DNA from: Nanobdellota archaeon
Lineage (GTDB): Archaea > Nanobdellota > Nanobdellia > Parvarchaeales > Parvarchaeaceae
Direction: 5' to 3'
Assembly (NCBI GenBank): GCA_021852265.1
Contig: JAJZNV010000005.1
Coordinates: 8,402 to 72,401 of the forward strand
Length of the DNA stretch: 64,000 nucleotides
The position numbers and the translations under genes are program-made. Of this stretch, positions 2,910 through 50,707 are shown piece after piece (the first letter of the stretch is position 1; each line of letters starts with the position of its first letter). The notes beneath the pieces are model-generated. The model had not been told where the DNA came from and did no database searches. It worked only from the letters and a program-made list of their open reading frames with translations.

Positions 2910-4433
2910 ATGACAGTAGATTCAACGGCAGATTTGCTAAATAAAACTGAAAAATCGCTCTTGTTATCCGTTTCAGAATCTCCTAAATATATCTCTGAGG
3001 TATCAAGTGCAACTGGGGTAGATAAAACTGCACTGTCAAATGCAGCTAGGAAGCTTCTCGGTTTAGATTTGGTGAGGATATCGAATGAAATAACAATTTC
3101 CTATCAGCTTTCACCTCTTGGGAAGAAATATGTTAAGCAAAACCTGCCGGAAATAACCCTAATAAATATGGTAAAGAACTCAGCAAAGATGGGCGACTTG
3201 AAAAATGCGCCGTTGGAGAAACAGGAATTGAGTGCAGCATTCGGTTATCTAAAGAAAAGCGGTGTTATAGATGTGATAAATGGGGAAATAATACTTAACA
3301 TGGATAAAATAGGGAAAATCAATAGTAAAAATGATTTGCTCAAATCTATAAGTAATAAAGAAGTACCCTCTGATACAGAGGACCTGAATGACTTCATAAA
3401 AAGAAAGATAATAGAGAAATCTGAGAGTATCGCCGAGCGAATAGAAATAACTGCAGAGGGCGTTAAAGTAATAAAATCTCCAAATTTCGGTAGAAACCTT
3501 GTTGATAAGCTCACCCCTGAGACAATTAAGAGCTGGAAAGGTCTAGAATTTAGGGAGTATGATCTAAGTGCTCGTCCACCCATACCGCTATCAGGAAAAA
3601 GAAATATAGCAAAACAATTTATCTCAAATGTCAAAGACACTCTAGTTGCGATGGGGTTCAAGGAGATGCAAAGCAATTATGCAGAGTCAAGCTTCTGGAA
3701 TTTTGATGTAATGATGTTCAAGCAGGAGCATCCTGATAGAGATATACAAGACACCGTCTATATAAATGCTCCGGAGCCTGTCGTCCAGAAAAATATTCTT
3801 GAGAGGGTAAAACAGGTTTATGAATCAGGATTCAAGACCGCTAGAAACAACAAATCAATCGGCTATGCACGTAAATTTGATGATAAAAAAAGCAGGGTTC
3901 TGATAATGAGAGGCCATACAACTGCGACAACGTTCAGATACATAAATGAGTTTATATCTAAGAATAAGGACTCTCCGGCGAAATACTTTTCATTGAGTAA
4001 GGTTTTTAGAAATGAAACAATGGACCAGACGCATCTACCAGAATTCTATCAGGTTGAAGGGATAGTTTATGATGACAATCTAAATGTATCTCATCTAATC
4101 GGTTATATAAAAGAATTCTACGGGAGGATTGGAATGGACCAGATAAGACTAAAGCCAACTTATAATCCTTATACCGAACCAAGTCTGGAAATACAGGCAT
4201 TCAGCTCTAAACTCAATAAATGGATAGAAGTTGGGAATTCTGGAGTATTCAGACCAGAAACACTCGAACCCTTCGGAATCAAAAAGAACATAGTCGCGTG
4301 GGGTTTTGGATTTGATCGCATTCTTCTTTTAAAACTGGGACTAGCAGATGTCAGGCTGCTTTACGGCGGGTTTGCGGACCTCGATGTGCTAAGAAATGTA
4401 GAAGCAAGGAAACTGTTTGATAGGATGGGCTAA
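2910..4433 (+). CDS. pheS: Phenylalanyl-tRNA synthetase alpha subunit
   Basis: 507 aa. Class II core FRNETMDQTHLPEFYQVEG and GFGFDRILL. N-terminal wHTH repeats typical of archaeal PheS. Followed directly by pheT. Confidence 0.9.
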   Translation: MTVDSTADLLNKTEKSLLLSVSESPKYISEVSSATGVDKTALSNAARKLLGLDLVRISNEITISYQLSPLGKKYVKQNLPEITLINMVKNSAKMGDLKNAPLEKQELSAAFGYLKKSGVIDVINGEIILNMDKIGKINSKNDLLKSISNKEVPSDTEDLNDFIKRKIIEKSESIAERIEITAEGVKVIKSPNFGRNLVDKLTPETIKSWKGLEFREYDLSARPPIPLSGKRNIAKQFISNVKDTLVAMGFKEMQSNYAESSFWNFDVMMFKQEHPDRDIQDTVYINAPEPVVQKNILERVKQVYESGFKTARNNKSIGYARKFDDKKSRVLIMRGHTTATTFRYINEFISKNKDSPAKYFSLSKVFRNETMDQTHLPEFYQVEGIVYDDNLNVSHLIGYIKEFYGRIGMDQIRLKPTYNPYTEPSLEIQAFSSKLNKWIEVGNSGVFRPETLEPFGIKKNIVAWGFGFDRILLLKLGLADVRLLYGGFADLDVLRNVEARKLFDRMG

Positions 4434-18468: not shown

Positions 18469-18500
18469 TTAAATATTATTATTTCAGCATGTAAATAGAT

Positions 18501-18755
18501 TTGCAGTATTTAGACTATTTATATCTGAAGAGTATTTGTTTTAGTATGATAGACCGTTATATGAAAGAGCTTACCCGGGTCAGTCTGGGAGCAATAATTG
18601 TTGGTGTTATTGTTTGGTTGTTCGGAGATTTTTACTGGGCGGCAGGATATGGGAGCACGTCAGTCTGGTATGTCTTTTTATACGGAGGAGTGTTCTTAAT
18701 CGCAATTGGCGTAGTTGAATGGACATATCTGAGTAGGAAAGTACGTTTGATATAA
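18501..18755 (+). CDS. Hypothetical small membrane protein
   Basis: 84 aa with two hydrophobic helices. Confidence 0.35.
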   Translation: MQYLDYLYLKSICFSMIDRYMKELTRVSLGAIIVGVIVWLFGDFYWAAGYGSTSVWYVFLYGGVFLIAIGVVEWTYLSRKVRLI

Positions 18756-37058: not shown

Positions 37059-37147
37059 GGGCCCGTCGTCTAGTGGATAGGATCGATGGCTTCGAATGCC
37101 ACTGATGGAGTGACCATCAGGCCGGGGTTCAAATCCCTGCGGGCCCT
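37059..37147 (+). tRNA. tRNA, probable Arg (anticodon UCG), with about 17-nt intron; integration target of the casposon
   Basis: Acceptor GGGCCCG/CGGGCCC, anticodon stem GATGG/CCATC, loop CTTCGA + intron + A, T arm CGGGG-TTCAAAT-CCCTG. The last 4 nt lie inside the left target-site duplication copy. Confidence 0.7.
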
Positions 37148-37157
37148 ATTCTGATTG
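37144..37157. repeat. Target-site duplication, left copy (ccctattctgattg)
   Basis: The same 14-mer abuts the outer end of each TIR in direct orientation (second copy at 50694-50707). Confidence 0.85.
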
Positions 37158-37380
37158 GGGGTATAGTATATCTCTTCCTTAATTTCACTCCTGCCCCAGT
37201 ATATATACAAAAGTATATACTTTCAATAATTCATGCCCAAATCATTTAAAATCAATATCTAATTTGTATAGGTTTCATTTAGGAGTATTCTAAGAGTAAA
37301 GTAGGGGTCATCTCGGATTCATCTGCGAGAAAACTCACTAATTAGTGATTCGTGAAAAAGGGGAAAAGTTCGAGAACTCG
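37158..37380. repeat. Left terminal inverted repeat (223 bp)
   Basis: Checked 10-mer by 10-mer: exact reverse complement of 50471-50693. Confidence 0.95.
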
Positions 37381-37553
37381 GAACAGTTTAAATAACTAAT
37401 TAGTGATGTTTGAGTAGGGTAACTAGGGATAGAGTCGAGTTACTATCAGTTAGCTAATATAATAAAAGTTTTTTAAGTTTGAAGGCCTGATTAAGAGTTG
37501 TAAAATTTACTTAAAAAGTAATCTTTATATAGATAAAATTTAACTATGTTTCA

Positions 37554-38696
37554 ATGGACCTTATATTAGAAGGGTTATTTATATTTTTTGTGATTGTTAC
37601 GACTCCGTTTACTCTTTTTCAGTTAGTACTTATTGTACGTAATAGGAAAGTTCTAAATAAAAAAATACCCCCTCCTCAATCTGGCAGGCGTATACTAGCT
37701 GTAATTGCGACTCTTGGTAAAGCAGATGATGTAGTGTTTCAAATCGTAAAACAACTCAAATCATATAATTTTAAGAATTTATACATATACATATTAGTTG
37801 AGTACGATAATAAGACTGATTATGGCGTAAAATCTATTGTAGTTCCAAAGGACTATAAAACAGATCATCATTCTAAATCCAAACATAGAGCTTTACATTA
37901 TTTTTCAGAATGGCTTAAAAAAGAAGGATATGGCAAGGAAACCTATGTAGTGCATTTAGACGATGATTCTGTAGTTTCTAAAAAATATTTAGAGTATGTG
38001 ATGGGAATGACGGCCGAGGCCGGACAGGGGGCCATAAGACTTAGGACGTATGGACACCATCTTTTTTCTACTTTAGCCGATTTTGGTAGAGTTGTAGATT
38101 GCGATACTTACTGCGCATTTTTTAATTCGAGAAGTACTCCTTTTGGAGTGCATGGGGAAGGTTTGGTAATAAGAGCCGATGTAGAAGAAGAGATTGGTTG
38201 GGATTATCAACCTACAGTAGCCGAAGATTTTATAATGGGCCAAAATATTTACTCCAAAGGGTATAAGTTTGATTTTATTCCAGGAGGTATCTACATAGCA
38301 CCACCTACAAACACAAGAGACTTTTATAATCAAAGAAGACGTTGGCACCACCACTTTTTTGAGTCGATTCACCTAGGTTACAAATTACATAAAAGTGCTA
38401 CTGCTTGGTTTGCATATCAGTATTCAATGGGTTGGGCCATGGCATTGGGGCTAGGTATCTGGATTTATGTTCTTATAGCCAGACCTAGTATCTATCCTAT
38501 ATTATTCTATATAACCACTTTTAATTTAATAGTGTCTTTTGGATTGTACCAATACGCTGCATATTACATAAAAAAATTAAAATACCATCTACTTATGTTA
38601 TTACTTCAAATCCCAGTCACCGTATATTACTCATTAACATTTTTTTACTACCTCCTTAAAAAACCTAAGAGCGATATATACATAAAAAAAGTGTAA
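37554..38696 (+). CDS. Family 2 glycosyltransferase, membrane-embedded processive type (D,D,D,QxxRW)
   Basis: 380 aa. N-terminal TM helix, VVHLDDDSVV (DxD), QRRRWHHH (Q-x-x-R-W) and C-terminal TM helices. Casposon cargo. Confidence 0.7.
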   Translation: MDLILEGLFIFFVIVTTPFTLFQLVLIVRNRKVLNKKIPPPQSGRRILAVIATLGKADDVVFQIVKQLKSYNFKNLYIYILVEYDNKTDYGVKSIVVPKDYKTDHHSKSKHRALHYFSEWLKKEGYGKETYVVHLDDDSVVSKKYLEYVMGMTAEAGQGAIRLRTYGHHLFSTLADFGRVVDCDTYCAFFNSRSTPFGVHGEGLVIRADVEEEIGWDYQPTVAEDFIMGQNIYSKGYKFDFIPGGIYIAPPTNTRDFYNQRRRWHHHFFESIHLGYKLHKSATAWFAYQYSMGWAMALGLGIWIYVLIARPSIYPILFYITTFNLIVSFGLYQYAAYYIKKLKYHLLMLLLQIPVTVYYSLTFFYYLLKKPKSDIYIKKV

Positions 38697-38727
38697 AAGT
38701 TATTAATTAAAGCAGTTTATAAATTTA

Positions 38728-39411
38728 ATGTCAACAACTATATTTGGGAAGATATCTTTTCTTAATGGTCAAATCGCTAAATTATCAATGGGTTCTAAGA
38801 TATTGAATTATGGCGGAGGTAGCATAGACATCAAAAACGGTATTGTGACAATAATTTTCAATGATACGAAGGAAAAAACGTTATTTGAGTTATACCACAT
38901 ATCTTATGATTTAATTGATAATCTCCTTTTAGGCAATGAACTTAACCTAGACAGAGCCATTATATTCTTCCCGGAAAGTGTAGAAAGAGACGGAATACAG
39001 GAACAGTTTGATTGGGATGTTTTCGAAATAAAGGCCGAACAAGTTGATATAAGAGAATTTGGAATTTTCCTTGCGGGAGATCCTCTATTTAGACAAGCTG
39101 TAAGAAACTTCCATATTGGTTTACTTGATACACGTGATGCACCGGCTCATTTTTATAGGGCCATTGAAGTTTTAAGGATAAGAGTTGCAACTCCAAATCC
39201 TAATAATAGAAGCGCCGAATGGGAGGAATTTAAGTCTAAAATATGTTTAAACAAAGAAGAGAAAGCTGACTTAATTTGTATGAAGGAAATAGCAAAAAAT
39301 TATCGACATGGTGTTAGGCTGGAAAATATAGATCATTTAAAATGGGTAGAGTTTACTAAAAAATTAATAATAAAAACTTATAATTACCTAAAAAAACAGC
39401 AGGCTTTTTGA
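38728..39411 (+). CDS. Hypothetical protein (casposon)
   Basis: 227-aa ORF with no family recognised. Confidence 0.4.
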   Translation: MSTTIFGKISFLNGQIAKLSMGSKILNYGGGSIDIKNGIVTIIFNDTKEKTLFELYHISYDLIDNLLLGNELNLDRAIIFFPESVERDGIQEQFDWDVFEIKAEQVDIREFGIFLAGDPLFRQAVRNFHIGLLDTRDAPAHFYRAIEVLRIRVATPNPNNRSAEWEEFKSKICLNKEEKADLICMKEIAKNYRHGVRLENIDHLKWVEFTKKLIIKTYNYLKKQQAF

Positions 39412-39419
39412 ATTTCTTT

Positions 39420-39674
39420 TCACTTCTCCCCCCACTGTTTTAATATCCTATCTGCTTCAAGTTCTTTTTCATAAATCCAATTATCATTTATCTCTGATAT
39501 TAACCCGATTAATTTTGGCGATCTTTTGTAAGCCGTTTTAGTTGCAGCGTAAACTTCTAATATCTTAGTAAAAACTGCATCGGCGCTTCTGCTTTTACTA
39601 TCAAGCTTTATTTGCATTATTTTTCTCCAGTTCTCGTAAGACACTGTAATGTCTTTATAGCCATTTCTTCTCAT
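39420..39674 (-). CDS. Hypothetical small protein (casposon; possibly RHH-like)
   Basis: 84 aa. Last gene of the minus-strand polB operon. The beta-strand/helix pattern ITVSYENWRKIMQIKLD is only suggestive. Confidence 0.35.
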   Translation of the reverse strand: MRRNGYKDITVSYENWRKIMQIKLDSKSRSADAVFTKILEVYAATKTAYKRSPKLIGLISEINDNWIYEKELEADRILKQWGEK

Positions 39675-39703
39675 ATTTTATGTTTTAAAGCCTAGTATTT
39701 TAA

Positions 39704-40138
39704 TCAGATTTCACCTTTTTTTATCAAGTCAGTCAATGCCCTTCCCTGCGTGTCAAGGAAATCCCTTCTCTGTTTCGCATCTGGATCTATCTTAGCCGAA
39801 GTTTTGTCTAAAACGTCCGTGTTTCTGAAGCGCAGTACGACATCGTCATCAAGCTTCTTCATAGAGGTATAATGCAGGTTTCTAAGTTTATCTGCGCAGT
39901 AGATACAGAACTTGCTGAATGGCACCATACTCTTATAGTTTTTTGATTTTATTGCGTCAGTCTTTGATAGTAGGTCTATTGCTTCATAGTAATCGGAGCT
40001 AGTTACTACAAAGTCCAGTGGGCGTCTTTTTTCCAGGTATACAATCACAAGCGCTTTGTACCATATCCTGTCTTTCGATTCAATCATATACTCATTCAAT
40101 GAACCGAATAATACGTTTTCAGGATCTTTATCTCTCAT
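39704..40138 (-). CDS. Hypothetical protein (casposon)
   Basis: 144 aa. Overlaps the polB 3' end by 11 nt, which suggests translational coupling. Confidence 0.4.
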   Translation of the reverse strand: MRDKDPENVLFGSLNEYMIESKDRIWYKALVIVYLEKRRPLDFVVTSSDYYEAIDLLSKTDAIKSKNYKSMVPFSKFCIYCADKLRNLHYTSMKKLDDDVVLRFRNTDVLDKTSAKIDPDAKQRRDFLDTQGRALTDLIKKGEI

Positions 40139-42836
40139 ATACCGCCTTGCTTTTTTGGCATCCCATCTTTGGATTTAAATCCATGTATGCCTGTATCCGT
40201 TTTATTATCTTACCCATCCTTCTGAATGGTTCTTGCTGTTTCCTTATCTGATAATACCTTCTTTTAGATATCCCTAGTCTGATTCTGTCGGTTTCTGTCA
40301 GCTCTCTCGCTTTTTCGGCCAGGTCCTCATATACTGTATAACTTCCATCTAAAACACCTACTACCTCGGACTCTTCCAGTTCATTGCTTTCTTTTCCTAT
40401 GTATTTTGTACTAGATGAGCAGAATATTACATGCTTTCTGCTTAGTTCTCCTATGTCTCCTTTAAACTTGCTCTCTGGGTGCTTCCAGTAATCCCATACC
40501 ACCTCTTCTATGGGCGTCCAGTATAATTGTGTATCCTGCTCGTATAATTTCCCACTCTTATAATCTATGAAAGGTTCATAGACTAAACTATTAAATGACT
40601 CTTTACTGCTGTTGACAAATGAATGAACTGGTATTATTGGCTCGTTAGTTTCAGGATCACGCCTACAGGATCTGCCCACCAAAACGAAATTGAACGGCCT
40701 TATAATCCCGAGCTTGGAAAATCTCTTTATTATTGACGGCTTTGTTACATTCAGCTCTGAAATCGCAAACTTACCTGAGTATTTTCGCACTATTTCATTA
40801 GGCCCTGTATTATTCAGTTCAATTTTCAGGATATCCTCCCAAATCTCTTTATTTTGAATGCCTTCTAGGTTTCCTAGCCCATGGGACGATGATGTGCGTA
40901 TAATTGGATTACCGTTTATGGTATCAAATAGAGCGTATCTCTTTGCTGATATACCATAGAAATTGACGTTTTCCAATGGTCTTCCATCCTCATCTTTCTC
41001 TACTTTAAACATGTCTGTTTCATGTTCATATGGGTTCAAAGGCTTGAAAAAGCTTTGTATTAGGTCTTTATGCTGCGGAGAGATCATTACGCTGTCTGTG
41101 TCGCAGTAAGCAAGGTACCCGCCGTTTCTTTTCAGCAGCGCTTCCGCTATACCCAAAACCAATCTAGAGGCTGATGTAAGCATAGTAGCTATGAGTGGAT
41201 TAAATTTAGAACCTGGTTTTTCAAGTCTATTCACCTTGCATATAAATTTCTTTAGGCCGTATACATCAACATTCTTATATTTTTCCAGTGGTTCAATGTC
41301 CAACTCTACGAAGATCCCGTAAGACATGGCATTAACTATGGTTTTTATCGCTTTCTGTTTAATAGTCAGCTGCCTTATCTCATTTTTATCCTTGGATATG
41401 CCTGCTTTGCGCTTTATCTCTAGTCTTTCATCTATTAGCTTCCGGACTATATTCTCTTCGGGACTTATAGTTATATCATCCATTATGTTTATCTCTCTAA
41501 GGCTATTTTGAACACCCTCACGCAGAAACTTTATAGCCGTTTTTATCTTTGGGACTTTGCCCGATAAGAATTTATCAGCTACCAGATCGGCAAGACTGTA
41601 CCATAAAGCCGTGCCGTCTGAAGAACTGACTACATTAAGCCCTATCGTATATGCATTCCTCCCATCATAATTGGATCTTATAGGCAATATATCGGAATCT
41701 GGGACTATCTCGCATATCACTGGAAGGCGTTTCCAAGTGCCTTTATCCATGAAATCTTCAATTTTTACAATTTCTAAGAAGGACTGAGTCTCGGCTGTCG
41801 CATCTTCATACCTTATCTTTTCAGCTTTTAGGAATGAGTCCATGTCTGTCAGAGTATAAACAGAAGGGTACATCGAAGTAAAGTCAAGATATGTTACTTT
41901 TGATGGCAATTTTCGGATTTTTACTTCTGTCCTACCCCCATAATATGTAGTCATAATATAACCCAATAGCTCTTTTGGAAAGTCTTTATTCTGCTCCATA
42001 AAGGGTTTTATACCGTAATTTTTAAGGTATGCTTTGGCCAGAGATGCCGGTGAGAGCAGCCTTTCGGGCGGTATATCAAGCATAAAGGTTGAGTATCTTT
42101 CCGTTAGCTTCTTATATAATTCGTAGGTAACATCCACATCGTTAATGTTATAAGCTATGTAATCTGGTGTTATTCTGCCGTGTCCATTTGGATGCGTCTT
42201 CCTGGAAATGCAGTCAAAATCCTCAGCGGCTGACTCAAGCGAGTAGCTTTTGCTTGTCAATGCAAATGCAAATGTCCTTAGATCCAGAAATCTTCCTCTG
42301 TAATATTCATATTCCTCATCTCTTTTGTCTCGGGGGGCAGTTATAGAATAAAATGACCTCTTTGAATCAAGGCTCTTTATATCTATCCTAGGCATTGTGG
42401 GATTTTTGGACAGGATAAAGGAGAACCCCCCTTTCAATGATTTTCTAGCTTCTCCGTATCTTATTGCGAGTCTGGATATGTCAAACGGCAAGTTAAACCC
42501 GACACAGAGGGCCTTTGCATTGTAAACGTAAGGCAGGAATATCCTATCAACAAAATCCGATCTGTTCATTAAAGTGAGATCATTTTCTAATGCGTATTGC
42601 TCTATTGTTTTTACATCATCTGTTTTTAAATCATCCGCGTAGAATAAGTATACAGCAAGGAGTTTGTCAGAAATGAATATCTTGCATGTTCCAAACAGCA
42701 GTTTCTGTTCTTTGTCTGTAGTAGTTTCCGTATCAAAAACAAGGATTATGTCGGTACTATAACAAAATCGCTTATCTGGTTTATCTACCAATTCAATAGG
42801 GGCATACGCCCTTAGCACTACAGTTTCATTAACCAT
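40128..42836 (-). CDS. polB: Family B DNA polymerase (casposon-encoded)
   Basis: 902 aa. ExoI LVFDTET, ExoII GFNLPFD, ExoIII YNINDVDVTYELY, Pol A YLDFTSMYPS, Pol B KTIVNAMSYGIF, Pol C YCDTDSV, KxY SAKRYALF. Confidence 0.9.
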   Translation of the reverse strand: MVNETVVLRAYAPIELVDKPDKRFCYSTDIILVFDTETTTDKEQKLLFGTCKIFISDKLLAVYLFYADDLKTDDVKTIEQYALENDLTLMNRSDFVDRIFLPYVYNAKALCVGFNLPFDISRLAIRYGEARKSLKGGFSFILSKNPTMPRIDIKSLDSKRSFYSITAPRDKRDEEYEYYRGRFLDLRTFAFALTSKSYSLESAAEDFDCISRKTHPNGHGRITPDYIAYNINDVDVTYELYKKLTERYSTFMLDIPPERLLSPASLAKAYLKNYGIKPFMEQNKDFPKELLGYIMTTYYGGRTEVKIRKLPSKVTYLDFTSMYPSVYTLTDMDSFLKAEKIRYEDATAETQSFLEIVKIEDFMDKGTWKRLPVICEIVPDSDILPIRSNYDGRNAYTIGLNVVSSSDGTALWYSLADLVADKFLSGKVPKIKTAIKFLREGVQNSLREINIMDDITISPEENIVRKLIDERLEIKRKAGISKDKNEIRQLTIKQKAIKTIVNAMSYGIFVELDIEPLEKYKNVDVYGLKKFICKVNRLEKPGSKFNPLIATMLTSASRLVLGIAEALLKRNGGYLAYCDTDSVMISPQHKDLIQSFFKPLNPYEHETDMFKVEKDEDGRPLENVNFYGISAKRYALFDTINGNPIIRTSSSHGLGNLEGIQNKEIWEDILKIELNNTGPNEIVRKYSGKFAISELNVTKPSIIKRFSKLGIIRPFNFVLVGRSCRRDPETNEPIIPVHSFVNSSKESFNSLVYEPFIDYKSGKLYEQDTQLYWTPIEEVVWDYWKHPESKFKGDIGELSRKHVIFCSSSTKYIGKESNELEESEVVGVLDGSYTVYEDLAEKARELTETDRIRLGISKRRYYQIRKQQEPFRRMGKIIKRIQAYMDLNPKMGCQKSKAVYER

Positions 42837-43302
42837 GCTTGTCTGCCCCCAGTAAAGTTGATATCGTGTAACATAAAGAGTTTGACAAGAATAATGCAGA
42901 AGCTTCGTTTAGTTTTACGTACCGAAGCATTAATATGTCGGATATTCCCTGTAGTAAAAAGGCATTTCTAACGTTTTCTGTTTGATCGGCAAGCTCCCAT
43001 CTTTTGTCCCATACCATCTGCCTTTTTGATAGTTCCTGGTGGCATGATTTACACACGGTTAAGACTATATTCGGGTTATGCTTCCATCCGGACGGATGGT
43101 GCAGTTCTGAATCATTATCTTTTATCAGTTTGTCGCATACCTTACAGATTGGGCTACGGAGAAATTCCTCATTATTGGATATTATAAAATTAATAAGTTT
43201 AATTAAATCAGACAGCTCTTTAGATAGGTTTTTAATATAATCCTCTTCAGCTTTCTTTAATTCAGAATTCAATTTTACCAGTAAACTTTCAGTCGGTGGC
43301 AT
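42829..43302 (-). CDS. HNH-type nuclease-like protein (casposon)
   Basis: 157 aa. CKVCDKLI...ELHHPSGWKHNPNIVLTVCKSCHQELS is an HNH-like CxxC...HH...N...CxxCH arrangement. Overlaps the polB start by 8 nt. Confidence 0.6.
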   Translation of the reverse strand: MPPTESLLVKLNSELKKAEEDYIKNLSKELSDLIKLINFIISNNEEFLRSPICKVCDKLIKDNDSELHHPSGWKHNPNIVLTVCKSCHQELSKRQMVWDKRWELADQTENVRNAFLLQGISDILMLRYVKLNEASALFLSNSLCYTISTLLGADKHG

Positions 43303-43966
43303 AGATGGAATAAAATTCAGGCTCCTCCCTCCTCTCCACTATTTCGAGAATCTTTTTCAGATCAGTTTCAAATGGATAAAACTTTAGATTTGAATCGAAA
43401 ACTCCACGGTTCTTAAATGCTTCTAACCTTTCTGGTTCGTTTTTGAAAATGAACCAGCGAACCGCATCAAGATATTGTCCAAGCAAAGATGCCTCTCTAG
43501 AATTATTTAGTTCAATTATAAGATCATTAGAATTTGAATATATGTGCATTATTCTTGGTATCTCGTCACTTGGATTAACAATCCATTTATTGCCCACTTT
43601 ACGGAAAGCGCCTGTGGCTCTTACAACATCAGAAAACTTAATGCCGTTGCTTTTAGCTATTTGAACAGGATCTCTATCTGGAAAGCGCCTAGATTCACTT
43701 ACGACTTTAAGGGCCATTTCTCTTTGTATTTTTTGCTTTGATGTCAACTTATTCCAAGGTCGCTGGTATAACGGCTTTCTTTTAGGATACCTTAAAGGAT
43801 TAGAGCCGTGTCCTCTTAGTTCCCTTAAAGTCGCATTCGGATATTTTGCATGTGCTTTTATAATGCGCTGAACGTATGGGCTGTTTGGATTCTTTTGCGC
43901 CGCTAACCACTCTTCAAACGTCCGAAACCTCCCAGAGAGCCCCATGATTAATATCTGGTCTCCCAT
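43289..43966 (-). CDS. Hypothetical protein (casposon, first gene of polB operon)
   Basis: 225 aa. Overlaps the downstream HNH gene by 14 nt. No family recognised. Confidence 0.4.
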   Translation of the reverse strand: MGDQILIMGLSGRFRTFEEWLAAQKNPNSPYVQRIIKAHAKYPNATLRELRGHGSNPLRYPKRKPLYQRPWNKLTSKQKIQREMALKVVSESRRFPDRDPVQIAKSNGIKFSDVVRATGAFRKVGNKWIVNPSDEIPRIMHIYSNSNDLIIELNNSREASLLGQYLDAVRWFIFKNEPERLEAFKNRGVFDSNLKFYPFETDLKKILEIVERREEPEFYSIYATD

Positions 43967-43975
43967 GAATAAATA

Positions 43976-44004
43976 CGTTATAGCGTACTTAGTTCGTTAT
44001 AGCG
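43976..44004. promoter_or_regulatory. Two copies of CGTTATAGCG (43976-43985, 43995-44004) in the 66-bp divergent promoter region; candidate operator
   Basis: Direct 10-mers 19 bp apart, between the divergent operons. A TATA-like tatttata follows at about 44011-44018. Confidence 0.3.
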
Positions 44005-44032
44005 AAAAGTATTTATAGGTGGGATAACTTAA

Positions 44033-45097
44033 GTGTATATGGTAAATAATAATAAGACACTTAAAAAGATAGAAAATAAATATGAGATTTTGGGGTACTT
44101 ATTTTCCAAGTCTAATCCAGTAACTTCGGCCGATTTGATTAAAGAAATACGCGGTATGAAGAGAACTGCATTTTTTAGTAATTTAAGAGATTTGGTAGAT
44201 AAAGGATATGTCTCTAAAACATATATAAATGGGGGTCCGGTCTATACACTGACACCTAAAGGAATAGATTACTACAAAAAAGATGTTTGGAGGGTCATAT
44301 CAGACCTTATGAGTTTCCAAGAGTATGACTATGGGGGGGATAATGATTCAGGCTTGCATACAATGTTTCAAGGTGTTTATTTTAATATTTTTCAATCTAG
44401 TGGAAAATCAGCACTTTTAGATTTAAAGAAAAGTAGTGATGAGATAAAAGATTCAATAATAAACCGTATATCTAATCAGATAAAAATGGCTTTAAACGCA
44501 AAAACTCTGCCTAAAGTGAATCCTGGAGCTAAAGTGATATTCGCTTTAGATATAGACTATGAACAAATGTACCAAAGGATAAATACACTAAGAATATTTA
44601 TAGATGATCTAAATGAGGATGTTTCTTATATCTTTAAAGATACAAGGCTTGGTTTCTTTCATGAGGAGGATAAAAGGCGATTTAATCTTGAGATGTTATT
44701 TAAGATCTTATCCGAATTGGAAAATTTTCTTGGTAAGAGCATCGAAAAGAAGATAAATAAGCTTCTTGATTACATATCTGATAATGAAGAGGAGTTCTTG
44801 GAATTTATAAACGGCGCTTTAGATACGGAGCTGTTAAACTGTGTAATAGAAGATGTCCGAAAAAATAAGCATCCCTTGGATGATCCGGAGATAAAAAATA
44901 AGCTTGTTGAAGTAGAGCTTACTCCTGGTAAATTTGGTGTTCGCATCTTAACTGGAACTTATCTAGATGTCGCGCTTTATCTTTTACATAAAAATAAAGA
45001 ATTAGTAGCTAAAATAGAAAAGTTTACAAAAGAAAATCGTGATAAAGAAGATGATATTGTGAAAAATATCTTAAAAAACGGGGTAAGAAAAGTATGA
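44033..45097 (+). CDS. Winged-helix DNA-binding protein (casposon)
   Basis: 354 aa. N-terminal wHTH ILGYLFSKSNPVTSADLIKEIRGMKRTAFFSNLRDLVDKGYVSKTYINGGPVYTLTPKG. ATG at 44039 is an alternative start. ATGA overlap with cas1. Confidence 0.55.
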   Translation: MYMVNNNKTLKKIENKYEILGYLFSKSNPVTSADLIKEIRGMKRTAFFSNLRDLVDKGYVSKTYINGGPVYTLTPKGIDYYKKDVWRVISDLMSFQEYDYGGDNDSGLHTMFQGVYFNIFQSSGKSALLDLKKSSDEIKDSIINRISNQIKMALNAKTLPKVNPGAKVIFALDIDYEQMYQRINTLRIFIDDLNEDVSYIFKDTRLGFFHEEDKRRFNLEMLFKILSELENFLGKSIEKKINKLLDYISDNEEEFLEFINGALDTELLNCVIEDVRKNKHPLDDPEIKNKLVEVELTPGKFGVRILTGTYLDVALYLLHKNKELVAKIEKFTKENRDKEDDIVKNILKNGVRKV

Positions 45098-46272
45098 AAC
45101 CGCTATTAATCTCTGGTTTTGGGAGCTTCTTAAGCGTTGACAGGCGCAAACTAATAGTTTACAATACTTTTACTAAAGAAAAGTTTGAATTTTACCCCCA
45201 TCAGATAGAATATGATACAATAATAATAGACGGCCACTCTGGCGCTGTATCCTTTGATGCAATGAGATGGATAGCCAAGCATGATATAGCTTTAACCCTG
45301 CTGAATTGGAATGGGAATGTTCTTAGCACTCTGCAGCCTAAAGAGCCAGTTTCTGGAAAGCTTAAAATTGCACAGTACAAATCTTATCTTAATAAAGAAA
45401 GGCGTATAAACCTAGCTTCAGAGATAATAAAAGCCAAAATAAACAAATCGTATGAAATACTGGAAAAACTCTCCGTATATTACAAAGATCTGAAAATAAA
45501 TGATGTAAAAGCAAGCTTCGATAAAGAAGCCAGTCAAACTAAATTAGAGAGTATTAACTATATAATGATGTACGAAGGAAGGGTAGCCGATTTATACTGG
45601 AAAAACATGGCTAAAATCTTTAATTATTTAGCTCCGGAATTCAATTTCAAGTCTAGAAAAGGGAAATCGTATTCCTGGAACATGAATGCATCCGATGAAA
45701 TAAATGCCATGCTAAACTACGGATATGCCATTTTGGAAACACTGGTTAGAAAATATGTAAATGCCATCGGATTGGATCAAGATATCGGATTCTTGCACGA
45801 ACTAGCTAATTCGAGGGCTAGCCTAATTTACGACTTGCAGGAATTGTACAGATGGGTAATAGATCTTAGTGTTATCCAGGTTTTAGAGGATAAGAAGCTT
45901 AAGAAGAGCGACTTCATAGTCACTGAGAACTATAATATAAGACTTAGGGAAAGTGCTGCAAAGATGCTAATAAATAAGATAAAAGTTAACTTCAATAGCA
46001 CGTCTGTTTACAAGGGCAAAAATAGGGCCTTGGAATTCACCTTACTGGACAACATAAGAAAGCTGGCCGATCATGTATCCGATAGATCAAATGTTCTTGA
46101 GTTTTACATTCCGGAGGTAAAGATTGACAGAAACGATGACATAGCGGTAAGAGATAAAATATTGAGCATTACGCCTGCTGAAAGGAAAAAGCTTAAGATA
46201 AACAAAAGCACATTATGGTACAGGCAGAAAGCTATAAAGAATAGAAAAAGGATTAAACTATACAAACAATGA
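45094..46272 (+). CDS. cas1: Cas1-family integrase (casposase) with C-terminal HTH
   Basis: 392 aa. Cas1 motifs MMYEGRVADLYW (Glu), NAMLNYGYAILE, GFLHE (His) and LIYDLQELYRW (Asp). Basic C-terminal HTH-like tail KINKSTLWYRQKAIKNRKR. Confidence 0.85.
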   Translation: MKPLLISGFGSFLSVDRRKLIVYNTFTKEKFEFYPHQIEYDTIIIDGHSGAVSFDAMRWIAKHDIALTLLNWNGNVLSTLQPKEPVSGKLKIAQYKSYLNKERRINLASEIIKAKINKSYEILEKLSVYYKDLKINDVKASFDKEASQTKLESINYIMMYEGRVADLYWKNMAKIFNYLAPEFNFKSRKGKSYSWNMNASDEINAMLNYGYAILETLVRKYVNAIGLDQDIGFLHELANSRASLIYDLQELYRWVIDLSVIQVLEDKKLKKSDFIVTENYNIRLRESAAKMLINKIKVNFNSTSVYKGKNRALEFTLLDNIRKLADHVSDRSNVLEFYIPEVKIDRNDDIAVRDKILSITPAERKKLKINKSTLWYRQKAIKNRKRIKLYKQ

Positions 46273-46287
46273 TAATTTAAACTATTT

Positions 46288-46704
46288 CTAAAATAATCTT
46301 GGAGGCCTACGTTCTTTTAAACCTGTAATTGGGTTAATCCAATACTCTCCTTTTTCTTTTTTATGTGCCCTTTTTTGTCGTATTTCTTTTACTCTATCAT
46401 CGTTAGTTTTTTGGGCATGACAAGTGGCACATAGTGCTTGTATATTTGATATGTCAGTTTCCCCTCCCTTTGAATGGGGTTTAATATGGTCGTATTGGGT
46501 AGCAGAGGGTATTAATTGTTTACCACATATCGCACATTTGCCATGCTGCCTTTCCCATACCTTGTTTTTTTCCGATTTACTTATTTGTCTTTTATGGTCC
46601 TTTTTATTAGATTTTGGACTTTGCCAGATAGAATTTAAGCCTAGGGAATTGTTCTTTTTTATTTTATTACCAAAAATATCATAATTACTGTCTAAAATAC
46701 CCAT
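46288..46704 (-). CDS. HNH endonuclease (casposon)
   Basis: 138 aa. HGKCAICGKQL...YDHIKPHSKGGETDISNIQALCATCHAQK is a canonical HNH motif. Confidence 0.8.
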   Translation of the reverse strand: MGILDSNYDIFGNKIKKNNSLGLNSIWQSPKSNKKDHKRQISKSEKNKVWERQHGKCAICGKQLIPSATQYDHIKPHSKGGETDISNIQALCATCHAQKTNDDRVKEIRQKRAHKKEKGEYWINPITGLKERRPPRLF

Positions 46705-46778
46705 TATCGATGTAGTATTTCTTTATTTAAATAAGTTTATGCCATTTCGGTTTCTCTAAAACTATGTTGTAACTATTT

Positions 46779-47414
46779 TTACTTATACAATAAAACATGT
46801 TTAGGAAAGTGGAGTAGAAGATAAAATGTATTAGAAATTGAATTCCTATAATCATCTTTTATATATGAAGTTATGCAGAATGGTTGCAAAGAAGTATCAA
46901 TTTTCATTCGTGGGTAAGTTTTGGTTTCTTTTTTGTTACAGTGTAGCTGAGCTATAAAGATTTTCTTCTTAATTTTCCCCCTAAGATTTTTGTATCTATA
47001 CAAACCATCACTTAAGGCTATACCATATTCACAACCATGACTAAATATAAAAACACTCTCCATGTTTTTATTTATAATAGCTCTTTCGAAATCTCGCCCT
47101 TTTTCAACAAAAATTATTTTGTAATTCAATTTTAGGTGTTTTAACCTATATAGAAGTAAGAAAATAGAATTACTGTAAATATGTATATTCTCTAAAGAAC
47201 TGCGCATCCCAGATATTTTACGTTTTCCAATTATAATTCCTACAAATTTTGTAGTTTTGTTGTATTTCTTTTTTTTGTTAGTATTTTTAGATACTCTTAA
47301 TAATATTGGCATGAAAATAATAGAGATTGCTATAAAAATAAAACTGATTACTAGCGGTATTACAAATGCTATTACAAGTATTATTGTTATTAATACAATT
47401 AATTGAAATGCCAT
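46779..47414 (-). CDS. Hypothetical membrane-anchored protein (casposon)
   Basis: 211 aa with an N-terminal hydrophobic helix pair followed by a Lys-rich linker. No family recognised. Confidence 0.35.
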   Translation of the reverse strand: MAFQLIVLITIILVIAFVIPLVISFIFIAISIIFMPILLRVSKNTNKKKKYNKTTKFVGIIIGKRKISGMRSSLENIHIYSNSIFLLLYRLKHLKLNYKIIFVEKGRDFERAIINKNMESVFIFSHGCEYGIALSDGLYRYKNLRGKIKKKIFIAQLHCNKKETKTYPRMKIDTSLQPFCITSYIKDDYRNSISNTFYLLLHFPKHVLLYK

Positions 47415-47595
47415 TTATATAATGATACAAAAACCAAATAAATATTTATAAAAGATTTTTAAGTCCGTAAGATTAGCGCCAAATGCTGATAAATAATAAA
47501 ATTTTATTATTCCCACCCTATAAAAATGGGCTAACTTGTGTTCCCCCTAATCAAAAAATAACAAATTATAATTTATTTATGGCAATTAAAAAGAT

Positions 47596-48986
47596 TTAAG
47601 AAACGCTGCCAAAGCTCACGGAAGGCATAACCCCCTCTGGAGCCAAATTTGCTAGAGCAATATAAAATATGATCATTTTTCCTGAATTAAGTTGAAAAAA
47701 TACACCTGTTTTAGCTGGAGTCGACATTTTTACACCACCAGTAATATAATTAACAAAATTTATTGAGGAGTATACATTTCTATTTAAGAAATACATTGAG
47801 AGTGGATACGTCTGATTCGCTACGGTACTTGGTATACTATAACCATAATAATCATTTGAAAGATTATATGTTTGAACACCATAATTACCATTACCGCCTG
47901 CGCCATTCAACCAATAAGTTGGCGCTGTATTTGGTCCACCAAATCCATCTCTTGCATATGAAGCATTAGAAAAAGATTGGAATAAAGTTATGTATAGATA
48001 ATCCGAAGGAGAGAAATAACCATAACTTCCGCCACTACTTGAGGATAAATGTAAACCATCATCTGCAGAACTTACGGGAGGCAACGGATTATAAGCACTA
48101 CTCCAACCATTTAATGAGGCGGAATTTTCAAAATTATTATAATAATAAAATAAATTGAACCCATCATCGTATTCTGCATAAGTGGAAGATAATTGAGGGG
48201 CTTCTCCATCGTTTACTGTATTGAAAAGATTAGTTGATGTAGGAGCGAAGCCCATGTAGATTGTCTGCTTTGAGCCTGCGGGATTGATGAGGTCAACTTG
48301 ACCCACCAGATTGCATGGGCTGATGTATAGTTTTCAAGCCAGGAATCTAGTATCTGGCCTGTTGAAGAGAAGAATTCGACGTTCTGGCCAAAAGGAGACG
48401 AAGAGATCTTTACCCAGCCTGGACTGGAGCTAGTGACGTTAATCATCTGCTGAAAAGGGGAAGGAGTGCCTTGACTTTGTGTGTTTGTTATATTTAAGGG
48501 TTCATATGAAGTAGCTGAAGAAGGGGGAGAAGCTGCTGTTCCTGAGACAGTTCCTGTTGAAGTGTATGGTCCCGGAAATATCTGTCCTGGCTCCAGGTAG
48601 GATATGACAGCAGAAACTGAATACCTTGCTCCTGGGCTGCATAATGATGATGAGGGTACCGTTACAGTCTGTATGCTATTGGGCTGGATTAGGATGTTTG
48701 GACTGTAGGTTGTCTTGCCTGATGAGGAGGTCAGGTTGATTTGGGTTATGTTTATAGGGTAACCTGTTGAGTCTCCCATTGATATTGTGAAGCTTGTTCC
48801 TCCTAGGCAGACTGCATTTATTGTTCCTAAATTGGAGAAGCCTGTTATTGTTGTTGACAGTGATGAAGAAGGTGAAAAGATACCTAGACTATATAAGACT
48901 GCTGCGACGATGACAATGACTAGTATGGCCCAGCCGTACGTCATCATATACTCCAATGCCGATTGGGATTTTCGTGGGAGACTCAT
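47596..48986 (-). pseudogene. Type IV pilin-like (class III signal peptide) surface protein with DUF2341-like domain, interrupted by a frameshift
   Basis: ORFs 48213-48986 and 47596-48306 overlap by 94 nt in different frames. Joined, they read ...AIWWVKLTSSIP / AGSKQTIYMGFAP..., a continuous DUF2341-like motif. The N-terminal 170 aa are paralogous to 49220-50404. The total length of 1391 nt is not divisible by 3. Confidence 0.65.
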
Positions 48987-49219
48987 ATAAGAGAAATAAG
49001 GGGAGTAAATAAATAGTTTTCATCGGGGCTACAGTAAACCACTTGATTAGGGCAGATTTTGCTCGAATCCAGTATTTATTACCTCGAAGGAGATTTAAAT
49101 TATGTTGTGTTCTATTAAAGTTATAGATTAAGAGAGTCATCGCCTAATAAATTCTGTTCTGCTTCAGGCGCTTAGACTTTATGTGCTTGTTTCTCTGCTA
49201 TTTGTGGTCAAGATATATA

Positions 49220-50404
49220 TTAGGAAAGCCCAGTATCCTGGTAATTACTTGTAAACAGAACATCTGAAACAATTCCATTTTTATTATTTCCGCTGTAATC
49301 CACAGCTGAACCATTCAAGGGCCAAAATACATCTATATTCATCCCACTAAGCGGTTTGCCTGTTAATCCGCTCGTGTACAATTGTTTTATTTGTGCAGGC
49401 GAAAGAGAACTATTATAGTATTGAAAGTTACTAACAAAACCATCTATTGTAGATGCTATACTTGGAGAGGATGAACTAAATATATTTGTTGGGTGTCCAT
49501 TTGGATAACCTAAATAAAAACATACGCTGCCAGGCGGCCAGCTTTCTGCCCCAGTATTAGATGAAACTAAGTTTCCATTTAAATATAAAGAATCATTATC
49601 AGTGGCGTTGTTATAAGACAGAACTGTATAGTACCATTCTCCTTGGTGTACGCTTGGACTTACTAGGTCAGGAAGATTCCATACCGATCCCCAGATAACT
49701 CCTGAGTTTAGGCCTAGGGGCGACATAGAGCCTGTGCAAAGTAATTGAATGAATGGCTGCACGGAATTCACATTAGATATTGAATTCATATAAACCCACA
49801 TCGAAAATGTTTTTGGTGAATTCGTTTCCATAGCTAAATTACTTATTTCTATTGTGCTTATCGGCGAACTACCCCCAGCGGTTGAATTTTGACCAAAGAA
49901 TTCAGCTACATATTTCGGTAAAATTAAAGAAGAAGACGTTCCAGAAACCGTTCCACTCGAGATATATGGTCCCGGGAATGTCTGACTTGGTTCAGTGTAG
50001 TTTACTGTCACAGCAAGAGAGTAGCGTGAGCCTGCTGCCGGACAAATGTTCGGAACTGAGAATATGTAACTCGAAGTAGGCTGGATTATTGGATTTGGGT
50101 CCACGGTTGAATTTGGCTTGAATGTGGAGATCTGACCAGTGGATGATTTTGCTGTGACACTAGTAATATTTATTGGGTAACCTGTGGAGTCTCCTAAGCT
50201 TATTCTTAATATTCCGTTGGCTGTGCACTCTCCCGTAACACTGCCCAGGTTGGAGAAACCGGTTACTGTTGAAGACAATGAGGATGCTGGAGAAAATATT
50301 CCCAAACTGTATAAAACCCCTGCTACTATCACAATGACTAGTATGGCCCAGCCATAAGTCATCATATACTCCAGTGCTGATTGGGATCTTCGTGGTAGAC
50401 TCAT
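49220..50404 (-). CDS. Type IV pilin-like (class III signal peptide) surface protein with C-terminal LamG/ConA-like lectin domain
   Basis: 394 aa. N-terminus MSLPRRSQSALEYMMTYGWAILVIVIVAGVL (prepilin-type signal plus hydrophobic helix). C-terminal FSMWVYMN...GEWYYTVLSYNNATDNDSLYLNGNLV is typical of Laminin-G-3-like domains. Confidence 0.7.
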   Translation of the reverse strand: MSLPRRSQSALEYMMTYGWAILVIVIVAGVLYSLGIFSPASSLSSTVTGFSNLGSVTGECTANGILRISLGDSTGYPINITSVTAKSSTGQISTFKPNSTVDPNPIIQPTSSYIFSVPNICPAAGSRYSLAVTVNYTEPSQTFPGPYISSGTVSGTSSSLILPKYVAEFFGQNSTAGGSSPISTIEISNLAMETNSPKTFSMWVYMNSISNVNSVQPFIQLLCTGSMSPLGLNSGVIWGSVWNLPDLVSPSVHQGEWYYTVLSYNNATDNDSLYLNGNLVSSNTGAESWPPGSVCFYLGYPNGHPTNIFSSSSPSIASTIDGFVSNFQYYNSSLSPAQIKQLYTSGLTGKPLSGMNIDVFWPLNGSAVDYSGNNKNGIVSDVLFTSNYQDTGLS

Positions 50405-50470
50405 ATGATAGAGAAGGCAAGAGGAAATAAATAGTTTTCATTGGACTGCGGAAAGTCAAATTTTAAACCT

Positions 50471-50693
50471 CGAGTTCTCGAACTTTTCCCCTTTTTCACG
50501 AATCACTAATTAGTGAGTTTTCTCGCAGATGAATCCGAGATGACCCCTACTTTACTCTTAGAATACTCCTAAATGAAACCTATACAAATTAGATATTGAT
50601 TTTAAATGATTTGGGCATGAATTATTGAAAGTATATACTTTTGTATATATACTGGGGCAGGAGTGAAATTAAGGAAGAGATATACTATACCCC
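50471..50693. repeat. Right terminal inverted repeat (223 bp)
   Basis: Exact reverse complement of 37158-37380. Confidence 0.95.
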
Positions 50694-50707
50694 CCCTATT
50701 CTGATTG
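50694..50707. repeat. Target-site duplication, right copy (ccctattctgattg)
   Basis: Identical to 37144-37157 and directly abuts the right TIR. Confidence 0.85.

Follow-up and report, generated by a model that had tools for sequence, protein, structure and literature searches.

Casposons are proposed ancestors of the CRISPR adaptation machinery, and their integration step has been studied. Nearest to the element described here are the family-2 casposons, such as AciBoo-C1 of Aciduliprofundum boonei, MetMaz-C1 of Methanosarcina mazei and NitNCS1-C1 of Nitrosotalea okcheonensis (PMC4046053, PMC6563490, PMC10359463), whose core consists of a Cas1 with a C-terminal extension (the casposase), a family B DNA polymerase (PolB), an HNH protein and two conserved helix-turn-helix (HTH) proteins, one of which has C-terminal HEAT-like repeats. 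Krupovic et al. regarded the PolB C-terminal domain shared with the casposase as a hallmark of family 2 (PMC4046053). The terminal inverted repeats (TIRs) of these elements start with GGG(G)ATATAG-like sequences, the target-site duplication (TSD) is 14 bp long and insertion occurs at the 3′ end of a tRNA gene; for instance, MetMaz-C1, which is experimentally mobile, has the TIR GGGATATAGGTAAC and a 14-bp TSD (PMC10359463). According to PMC7544198, the A. boonei casposon PolB belongs to the PolB_CDTDS cluster named by Kazlauskas et al., which stands as a cluster of its own and is related both to the main PolB group and to that formed by protein-primed PolBs (pPolBs).

The element analyzed here lies in a stretch of 64,000 nucleotides from a Nanobdellota archaeon (contig JAJZNV010000005.1, positions 8,402 to 72,401, assembly GCA_021852265.1), which is referred to below as the window. 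It is a casposon of an already known kind, family 2, and occupies positions 37158–50693 (13.5 kb). Five minus-strand genes running from 43966 to 39420 are likely to represent the polymerase half of a complete family-2 casposon core, the identity of the module and its role in replication being judged together. The window casposon shares with the described family-2 elements the make-up of the core, with a putative second HTH protein, the C-terminal domain common to PolB and casposase, the TIR starts, the 14-bp TSD and the insertion at a tRNA 3′ end, and its PolB is 40–49% identical to the Nitrosotalea, Micrarchaeota and Methanocella copies. In contrast to those examples, its host is an archaeon whose genome is very small (0.78 Mb in an assembly of 88% completeness), and the range known for family-2 casposons is thereby widened; its target is tRNA-Ser, not tRNA-Pro; its TIRs, of 223 nt, stand out for their length and perfection; and it carries two small clade-specific genes (p144 and p84) coupled 3′ of polB, a second, canonical HNH gene and a cargo of surface genes. 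The family-1 casposons of Nitrosopumilus also combine Cas1 and PolB and have small conserved genes directly 5′ of polB, but their polymerase is a bona fide pPolB related to those of His1/His2, their Cas1 lacks the C-terminal HTH and their usual target is ef-2, none of which holds for the window casposon. The window copy is clean, with intact genes, perfect TIRs and close variants, and it shows a polymerase that travels with a winged HTH (wHTH) protein and an HNH nuclease and whose predicted fold has the layout of the phi29 enzyme rather than that of a cellular PolB.

The casposon and its polymerase genes

Cas1, perfect TIRs and an exact TSD bear out the original prediction, made from the DNA letters of the window, that the element is a casposon. 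The left TIR (223 nt; 37158..37380, plus strand) starts GGGGTATAGTATATC, and the right TIR (223 nt; 50471..50693, minus strand) is 100% complementary to it. The left 14-bp TSD, CCCTATTCTGATTG (37144..37157, plus strand), overlaps the 3′ end of tRNA-Ser(CGA) (37059–37147), which is the insertion target, and its exact copy stands at 50694..50707 (plus strand). The TIR begins GGGGTATAG; its terminal motif resembles the TIR of MetMaz-C1 and agrees with the termini GGG(G)[AT]TA[TA]AG common to more than 30 related elements. The casposase gene (45094..46272, plus strand) encodes a Cas1-family protein with a C-terminal extension (PF01867, 1.3e-58, residues 4–296; TIGR00287, 9e-53), in which the Cas1 Pfam domain stops at residue 296 of 392, and a Cas1 search of the assembly gave the casposase as the single genomic match; the protein is predicted to be an intact Cas1-family enzyme with no CRISPR association. 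Judging from its sequence, the casposon at 37158–50693 is probably still mobile, and an indirect sign of mobility is the presence of casposon variants with different cargo in several samples. The outermost TIR bases, at 37158 and 50693 in the window, are also kept in archaeal and several bacterial casposons (loci L009, L010, L015, L017, L021-L027, L029, L032, L041, L046, L047, L059, L077, L083 and L085), and for most casposons with the conserved terminus a 14–15-bp TSD can be read immediately outside.

All five open reading frames (ORFs) are on the minus strand, where they were first placed: p225 (225 aa, 43289..43966), the first gene of the operon, p157 (157 aa, 42829..43302), PolB (902 aa, 40128..42836), p144 (144 aa, 39704..40138) and p84 (84 aa, 39420..39674). 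The overlap is 14 nt between p225 and p157, 8 nt between p157 and PolB and 11 nt between the PolB stop and p144, each with a +1 frame change, so that the original prediction of an overlapping operon holds for these junctions but not for p84, which follows p144 after a 29-nt spacer. Shine–Dalgarno (SD)-like purine tracts, located within the gene before, precede the start codons of PolB and p144 by 5–13 nt, and together with the packing of the co-oriented genes they agree with the tight coupling that had been proposed; no such tract was found upstream of p225. From the overlaps, the SD-like tracts and the conserved spacing, we infer an operon with translational coupling, in which the five genes would be read as one transcript from the 66-bp intergenic region (43967..44032) between the PolB operon and the divergent wHTH–cas1 operon. 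This region contains TATA-like boxes and would be a shared divergent control region with promoters; a run of seven T (39390..39396, minus strand), 24 nt past the p84 stop, is a candidate archaeal operon terminator. In a 96%-identical variant (L091), the five genes, the 14/8/11-nt overlaps and the 29-nt gap are all kept, and the gene order is identical in relatives with 70% and 59% PolB identity. The ratio of nonsynonymous to synonymous substitution rates (dN/dS) against the 96% variant is 0.12–0.16 for p225, p157, PolB and p84; for p144 it is 0.38 against the same variant, from 5 changes only, and 0.12 against the 70% relative, and that of p84 stays at 0.12–0.15. Because the layout is kept in the variant and the relatives and dN/dS is low, all five ORFs are taken to be real genes under purifying selection.

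The order p225, p157, PolB on the same strand recurs in 82 of 85 loci collected with iterated hidden Markov models (HMMs) over six-frame ORFs. These loci include alphaproteobacterial, acidobacterial and Bdellovibrionota elements, and cas1 usually lies divergently 1–2 kb upstream; p225, the HNH gene and PolB thus appear, in casposons of archaea as well as of bacteria, to make up a constant triad with coupled translation. p225 and p157 correspond to one of the "two HTH proteins" and to the "HNH" protein of the published family-2/3 core (PMC4046053). p225 consists of a basic N-terminal region with Y31..R34-I35..R51-G-H53, a winged helix at about 76–130 and a C-terminal alpha/beta domain, to which T201, F218 and Y222 belong; conservation amounts to 69/71 sequences for Y222, 65/71 for T201 and 61/71 for Y31, and F218 is nearly invariant. 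Its AlphaFold (AF2) model has a mean predicted local distance difference test (pLDDT) score of 91.6, and a fold search of this model against the PDB and BFVD gave no match at E<0.1, only winged-helix fragments. The family comprises at least 413 database clusters, all annotated as "hypothetical" and without a Pfam entry. p225 is therefore a conserved casposon wHTH protein with an unmatched C-terminal domain; its identification with a known terminal protein or another known fold was rejected, there being no PDB/BFVD match. In p157, the motifs C53xxC56 ... E66-x-H68-H69 ... C84xxC87-H88 ... Q95 are kept in 42–45 of 45 sequences; ahead of them, p157 has an N-terminal extension of some 50 aa that is helical and restricted to its clade. 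Pfam HNH models recognized neither p157 nor five of its orthologues; weak PHROG HNH matches were obtained, and the p157 HMM cross-matches canonical HNH ORFs. p157 is accordingly assigned, by its motifs, as a divergent zinc-finger HNH nuclease, the conserved HNH of casposons.

p144 and p84 are confined to the 96%, 70% and 59% relatives. In all other casposons the region 3′ of polB is variable, with no positional equivalent of the two genes downstream of polB. Searches of 5.8 billion and of 1.84 billion proteins gave 4 clusters and 12 representatives, respectively, for p144; its distant relatives stand in non-casposon, mobile-element-like arrays beside AAA ATPase, MCM or SNF2 genes. Neither protein has a match in Pfam, PHROGs or NCBIfam. 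The PDB matches of the pair were discarded as spurious (de novo TIM barrels on 20 residues; AcrIF14 at E 0.15). Judged by eye, the p84 N-terminus is at most a tentative ribbon-helix-helix. Both are best described as clade-specific accessory genes with no detectable family. In a weak p144 relative of 280 aa (P0157), the motif at the centre of p144, FPQFCTYCPDKLW..., occurs three times in tandem, and for this reason the ~50-aa segment of p144 is regarded as a repeatable module; the CxxC within it varies across the family.

The original prediction had grouped the 225-, 144- and 84-aa proteins as unknowns and as candidates for priming or terminal-protein and accessory replication roles. Lineage restriction and lack of a family hold for p144 and p84, while the 225-aa protein turns out to be a conserved casposon wHTH protein, and the terminal-protein candidacy finds no tie to a terminal-protein fold in the comparison of p225 with the PDB and BFVD. 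The "HNH-like" description of p157 was right and can be extended, since this is a conserved casposon gene that directly precedes PolB in the 82 loci.

Family and predicted architecture of the polymerase

The exonuclease motifs of PolB are ExoI D35-T-E37, ExoII N115-LPF-D119 and ExoIII Y229-NIN-D233; the polymerase motifs are A D318-FTSMYPS, B K498...N502AMSYG507, C Y577-CDTDS and KxY K632-R-Y634. All of them, as first read, are retained at their places and occupy columns that are invariant, or nearly so, in the 21- and 121-sequence family alignments. With no catalytic aspartate substituted, PolB is predicted to be catalytically intact. The C-terminal ~65 positions of the casposase HMM (about 300–360) match PolB 808–867 at E 1.2e-5 and related PolBs at 1e-9 to 1e-15; pairwise BLASTP of the PolB tail against the Cas1 tail gave nothing, and it was the casposase HMM that detected the match. 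Pfam gives PF03175, the protein-primed family, for residues 211–333 only (41 bits against a 25.8-bit cut-off) and PF00136 for the fingers, PF03175 being the stronger of the two partial matches. A PDB sequence search with the PolB profile returned archaeal PolB fingers only (E~1e-5).

More than 4,400 PolB homologues are present in the protein collection. The relatives rank by identity as 96%, 70% and 59%, followed by 40–49% for Nitrosotalea, Nitrosopumilus, Micrarchaeota and Methanocella arvoryzae MRE50, the last at 42% and presumably one of the described family-2 casposon hosts. A scan of genome contigs with the single PolB gave 0 loci and an alignment-based scan gave 80. In a midpoint-rooted FastTree tree of 78 PolBs from the 85 loci, built with no outgroup, the window PolB falls within an archaeal clade, next to Nitrosotalea, Thermoplasmatota/Woesearchaeota and Micrarchaeota casposon PolBs, and the separation of this clade from the bacterial one, of family-3 type, has 100% local (Shimodaira–Hasegawa-like) support. 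On sequence and phylogenetic grounds, the window PolB is placed in the PolB_CDTDS or family-2 type, not with the family-1 pPolBs, with which it does not cluster by sequence; nor is it related to the chromosomal PolB of the host genus. The original prediction was to be given up if PolB grouped with the chromosomal polymerases of the host lineage or had lost a catalytic Asp; because the enzyme is not of the host type and its aspartates are kept, it stands.

The AF2 model of PolB, built from 121 sequences, has a pLDDT of 91.7 and a predicted template modelling (TM) score of 0.91. The exonuclease domain starts at about residue 30, palm motif A is at 318, the fingers span 463–505, motif C is at 577–582 and KxY at 632–634, and the C-terminal ~200 aa include the domain common to the casposase C-terminus (808–867). 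ExoI is located at residue 35, compared with 9 in phi29, 156 in Escherichia coli Pol II and 152 in the host enzyme, and because of this position the N-terminal domain of cellular PolBs is considered absent in the modelled protein. An alpha/beta insert of ~130 aa (330–460) lies between motif A and the fingers, at the TPR1 position, and a beta-hairpin of 30 residues (512–541) lies between motif B and the palm helix preceding motif C, at the TPR2 position; the corresponding stretch of phi29, between motif B and the palm helix, is what we take to be the place of TPR2. The motif spacings are as follows: A to B measures 180 aa in the casposon enzyme, 134 aa in phi29 and 74 aa in Pol II, and B to C measures 79, 71 and 50 aa, respectively. 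The check for TPR1/TPR2 insertions that had been suggested thus turns up predicted inserts in the two places, an unexpected outcome for a polymerase outside the family-1 pPolBs. The likeness, in the predicted model, is one of position and hairpin form; PDB sequence searches give archaeal fingers, and the inserts are called a position match to TPR1/TPR2 and not TPR1/TPR2 themselves.

In hhalign comparisons, whose templates were single sequences and hence weak controls, the PolB family profile aligned with phi29 in one unbroken stretch of 389 columns that runs from ExoII through both inserts as far as motif C (Prob 88%, E 2.9e-6), with Pol II over 204 columns ending at motif A (56%), and with the host-genus PolB over 146 columns with a template gap opposite 512–550 (28%). 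A chromosomal PolB from the same genus was substituted for that of the host itself, in which a run of N (34 X) replaces the stretch of motifs A and B. The host chromosomal PolB (G000:C7, L086 1438-3270, minus strand) reads 610 aa, compared with 772–824 aa for PolBs of the same genus; a truncated host polymerase was considered and rejected, the N-run being a gap or masked stretch and no real deletion. In Foldseek, phi29 DNA polymerase was among the top matches of the PolB model (E~1e-13, best target-normalised TM 0.51–0.55); Pol delta, the African swine fever virus polymerase and archaeal PolBs reached the same E-values.

The N-terminal domain and the short A–B and B–C spacings that characterize cellular PolBs are not found in the casposon enzyme. 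It resembles the phi29 PolB in lacking that domain, in its inserts between A and B and between B and C and in its YCDTDS motif C. The two systems are further alike in that the polymerase gene is closely surrounded by small accessory genes (in phi29, terminal protein gene 3 lies upstream of polymerase gene 2) and in that a linear element has inverted terminal repeats. Sequence similarity to phi29 is nevertheless marginal (the E-value above, against a single sequence); the casposon PolB exceeds the phi29 enzyme by 330 aa and has a large extension at its C-terminus; no casposon protein resembles a known terminal protein; and integration is by Cas1. Pipolins, with their primer-independent PolB (piPolB), are likewise self-replicating integrated elements that have a PolB with TPR1/TPR2-type inserts and no recognizable primase gene (PMC5695915). 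It has been reported that KxY and the PolC motifs are altered in piPolBs (PMC5695915); in the casposon PolB, by contrast, KRY and YCDTDS are canonical, and pipolins use tyrosine recombinases, not Cas1.

With the PolB_CDTDS cluster, as presented in the searchable text of PMC7544198, the window PolB shares the CDTDS of motif C and a standing between the main PolB group and the pPolBs, the latter seen here in the Pfam, hhalign and Foldseek results. That text makes no mention of TPR1/TPR2 or of a domain analysis of PolB_CDTDS; the missing N-terminal domain and the inserts at TPR positions are a reading of the predicted model. The phi29-like layout would hold for the whole PolB_CDTDS group and not for this copy alone, and this reading sharpens, without overturning, the 2020 view of PolB_CDTDS as lying between two classical PolB groups.

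Several observations concern polymerase copies elsewhere. Two PolB homologues on contigs of 655 kb and 39 kb (P0104 and P0110) lack the acidic residues of ExoI, with GSQTT and SSQIT in place of DTETT, and retain their polymerase motifs; such copies may have a dead exonuclease or be domesticated. On a 4.3-kb contig binned as Bacteroidota (L028), the PolB nests among Methanococcoides/Methanolobus casposon PolBs, and mis-binning is the probable cause of the assignment.

Proposed replication of the casposon

In the copy mechanism that appears most likely among those weighed, PolB would act as the casposon's own replicase and copy the element by processive strand displacement, without a clamp or helicase, from or beside the TIR ends. 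p225 would bind the TIRs and position PolB, the HNH protein or the casposase would nick the DNA to provide a 3′-OH as primer, and Cas1 would integrate the copy at the tRNA 3′ end. No primase, helicase or clamp was recognized in the part of the casposon ORFs that was scanned. As to the primer itself, a nick or another DNA 3′-OH is a tentative choice, and RNA from the host primase is given the same tentative standing; protein priming seems rather unlikely, and a de novo start as in piPolB still more so. Several points weigh against this proposal. The published suggestion is that the HTH and HNH proteins aid target recognition and integration (PMC4046053), and the parts played by p225 and the HNH protein in initiation are deduced from gene position alone. 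Family-2/3 PolBs have been called typical RNA-primed enzymes related to PolB3 (PMC4046053, PMC4104785), sequence searches of the PDB with PolB found no phi29-type chains, and hhalign confidence is low within the TPR1 stretch. In addition, operon status is based on spacing, and the 29-nt gap before p84 could harbour a promoter of its own.

According to the literature, the enzyme is an RNA-primed polymerase of the archaeal type supported by the host primase, and probably by host PCNA and helicase, while the wHTH and HNH proteins serve Cas1 rather than replication; this may be so, though it is given well under an even chance. Here the family-2/3 PolBs are set beside PolB3-like enzymes and priming by the host primase is proposed (PMC4046053, PMC4104785), with which the archaeal fingers found in the PDB search, the PF00136 match on the fingers and the canonical KxY and motif C are in agreement, and the winged helix of p225 could recognize the target or the TIR for Cas1. 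The predicted lack of the N-terminal domain and the inserts at both phi29-specific positions argue the other way, as do the longer and better alignment of the profile to phi29 than to Pol II or the host-genus PolB, the stronger of the Pfam matches, which is PF03175, and the separation of PolB_CDTDS from the main PolB cluster (PMC7544198); moreover, in the 82 loci it is with polB, and not with cas1, that p225 and the HNH gene are coupled. The pPolB-like layout and the partial PF03175 match above the cut-off have also been considered as signs of protein priming, in which p225 would be the terminal protein, the first nucleotide would be attached to Y222, T201 or Y31, sliding back would occur on the G-run and the TIRs would be two origins. 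p225 lies upstream of polB in the same operon, the usual place of a terminal-protein gene (PMC4046053; phi29 gene order), the three residues are conserved to the degree given above, and the perfect 223-nt TIRs belong to a set of 30+ elements whose termini start with 3–5 G. Nevertheless, the HNH gene stands between p225 and polB, p225 has an ordinary winged helix and no fold match to solved or viral predicted proteins, terminal proteins included, a casposase recognition site explains the conserved terminal motif equally well, and PolB_CDTDS clusters apart from the pPolBs (PMC7544198), so that protein priming is regarded as improbable.

A decaying relic, with a silent operon, a dead PolB and motifs that reflect recent inheritance, could account for the single casposon copy in an 88%-complete assembly; it is very improbable in view of the 100% identical TIRs, the exact TSD, the five intact genes under purifying selection against the 96% variant and the 70% relative, the intact Cas1 and the variants with different cargo in several samples. 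A wider reading goes beyond the proposed strand-displacement mechanism: the PolBs of family-2/3 casposons would not be RNA-primed and would represent a third lineage, one of PolBs that resemble phi29, need no clamp and displace strands; synthesis would be started either by p225, serving as terminal protein through its nearly invariant C-terminal Tyr, or by an HNH nick at the TIR. This is a speculative extension with little probability assigned to it; if true, casposon replication would be independent of the host primase, which is relevant in a minimal DPANN-type host. If PolB is strand-displacing and self-sufficient, it could be a practical amplification polymerase. In the literature searched, no family-2 casposon PolB was found to have been studied biochemically, and the window copy reduces the question of casposon replication to a short list of bench tests.

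Other genes and relatives of the casposon

The divergent operon opens with a gene (44033..45097, plus strand) for a 354-aa protein with a wHTH and a helical remainder. This is the presumed second conserved HTH protein of family-2 casposons, on the strength of weak wHTH/MarR matches and the position of its orthologues, which are flanked by cas1 and p225 both in L002/L003 and in casposons of Micrarchaeota; its C-terminus, the part in which one of the two family-2 proteins has HEAT-like repeats, is helical. The second, canonical HNH endonuclease (138 aa; 46288..46704, minus strand; PF01844, 4.7e-14) is a cargo or accessory gene and is absent from the 96% variant, and the cargo further comprises cell-surface genes (GT2, LamG/DUF2341). 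Besides a single casposon PolB and a single Cas1, the host assembly (0.78 Mb, 88% completeness) contains PolD and a chromosomal PolB. The gene p227 (38728–39411, plus strand) has homologues that carry PF26504 (DUF8168_C). Against the 96% variant, dN/dS is 0.70 for p227 and 0.45 for the 354-aa wHTH protein, compared with 0.11–0.16 for the core genes; these two change at a much higher rate than other parts of the casposon.

The 96% variant (L091, ena:ERZ27237514 k141_41155, together with L092 and L093) keeps the whole core and the p227–GT2 side, with a GT2 gene of 320 aa compared with 380 aa in the window. Beyond cas1, a SLFN_AlbA_2 gene replaces the 138-aa HNH, 211-aa membrane protein and LamG/DUF2341 genes of the window; because the two differ there, the cas1 end is where cargo is exchanged. 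The ends of contig L002 (1–141 and 15152–15292) are 141-nt perfect inverted repeats. A free linear element was considered and rejected, since 141 nt equals the assembler k (k141) and the assembly is broken within a TIR whose length is 141 nt or more. In the 59% relative (L004), the casposon adjoins tRNA-Arg(TCT) (3168–3242), a canonical HNH gene lies at the far end, and the TIRs (3363–3521 and 18500–18658) are 159 nt long and 89% identical; owing to this degeneracy, it looks like an older insertion than the window copy. Finally, two casposon cores or fragments occur within 22 kb in L019, L032, L050, L020 and L031 (Methanolobus, Methanococcoides and a Rhodospirillaceae metagenome-assembled genome), which is consistent with tandem or nested insertions.

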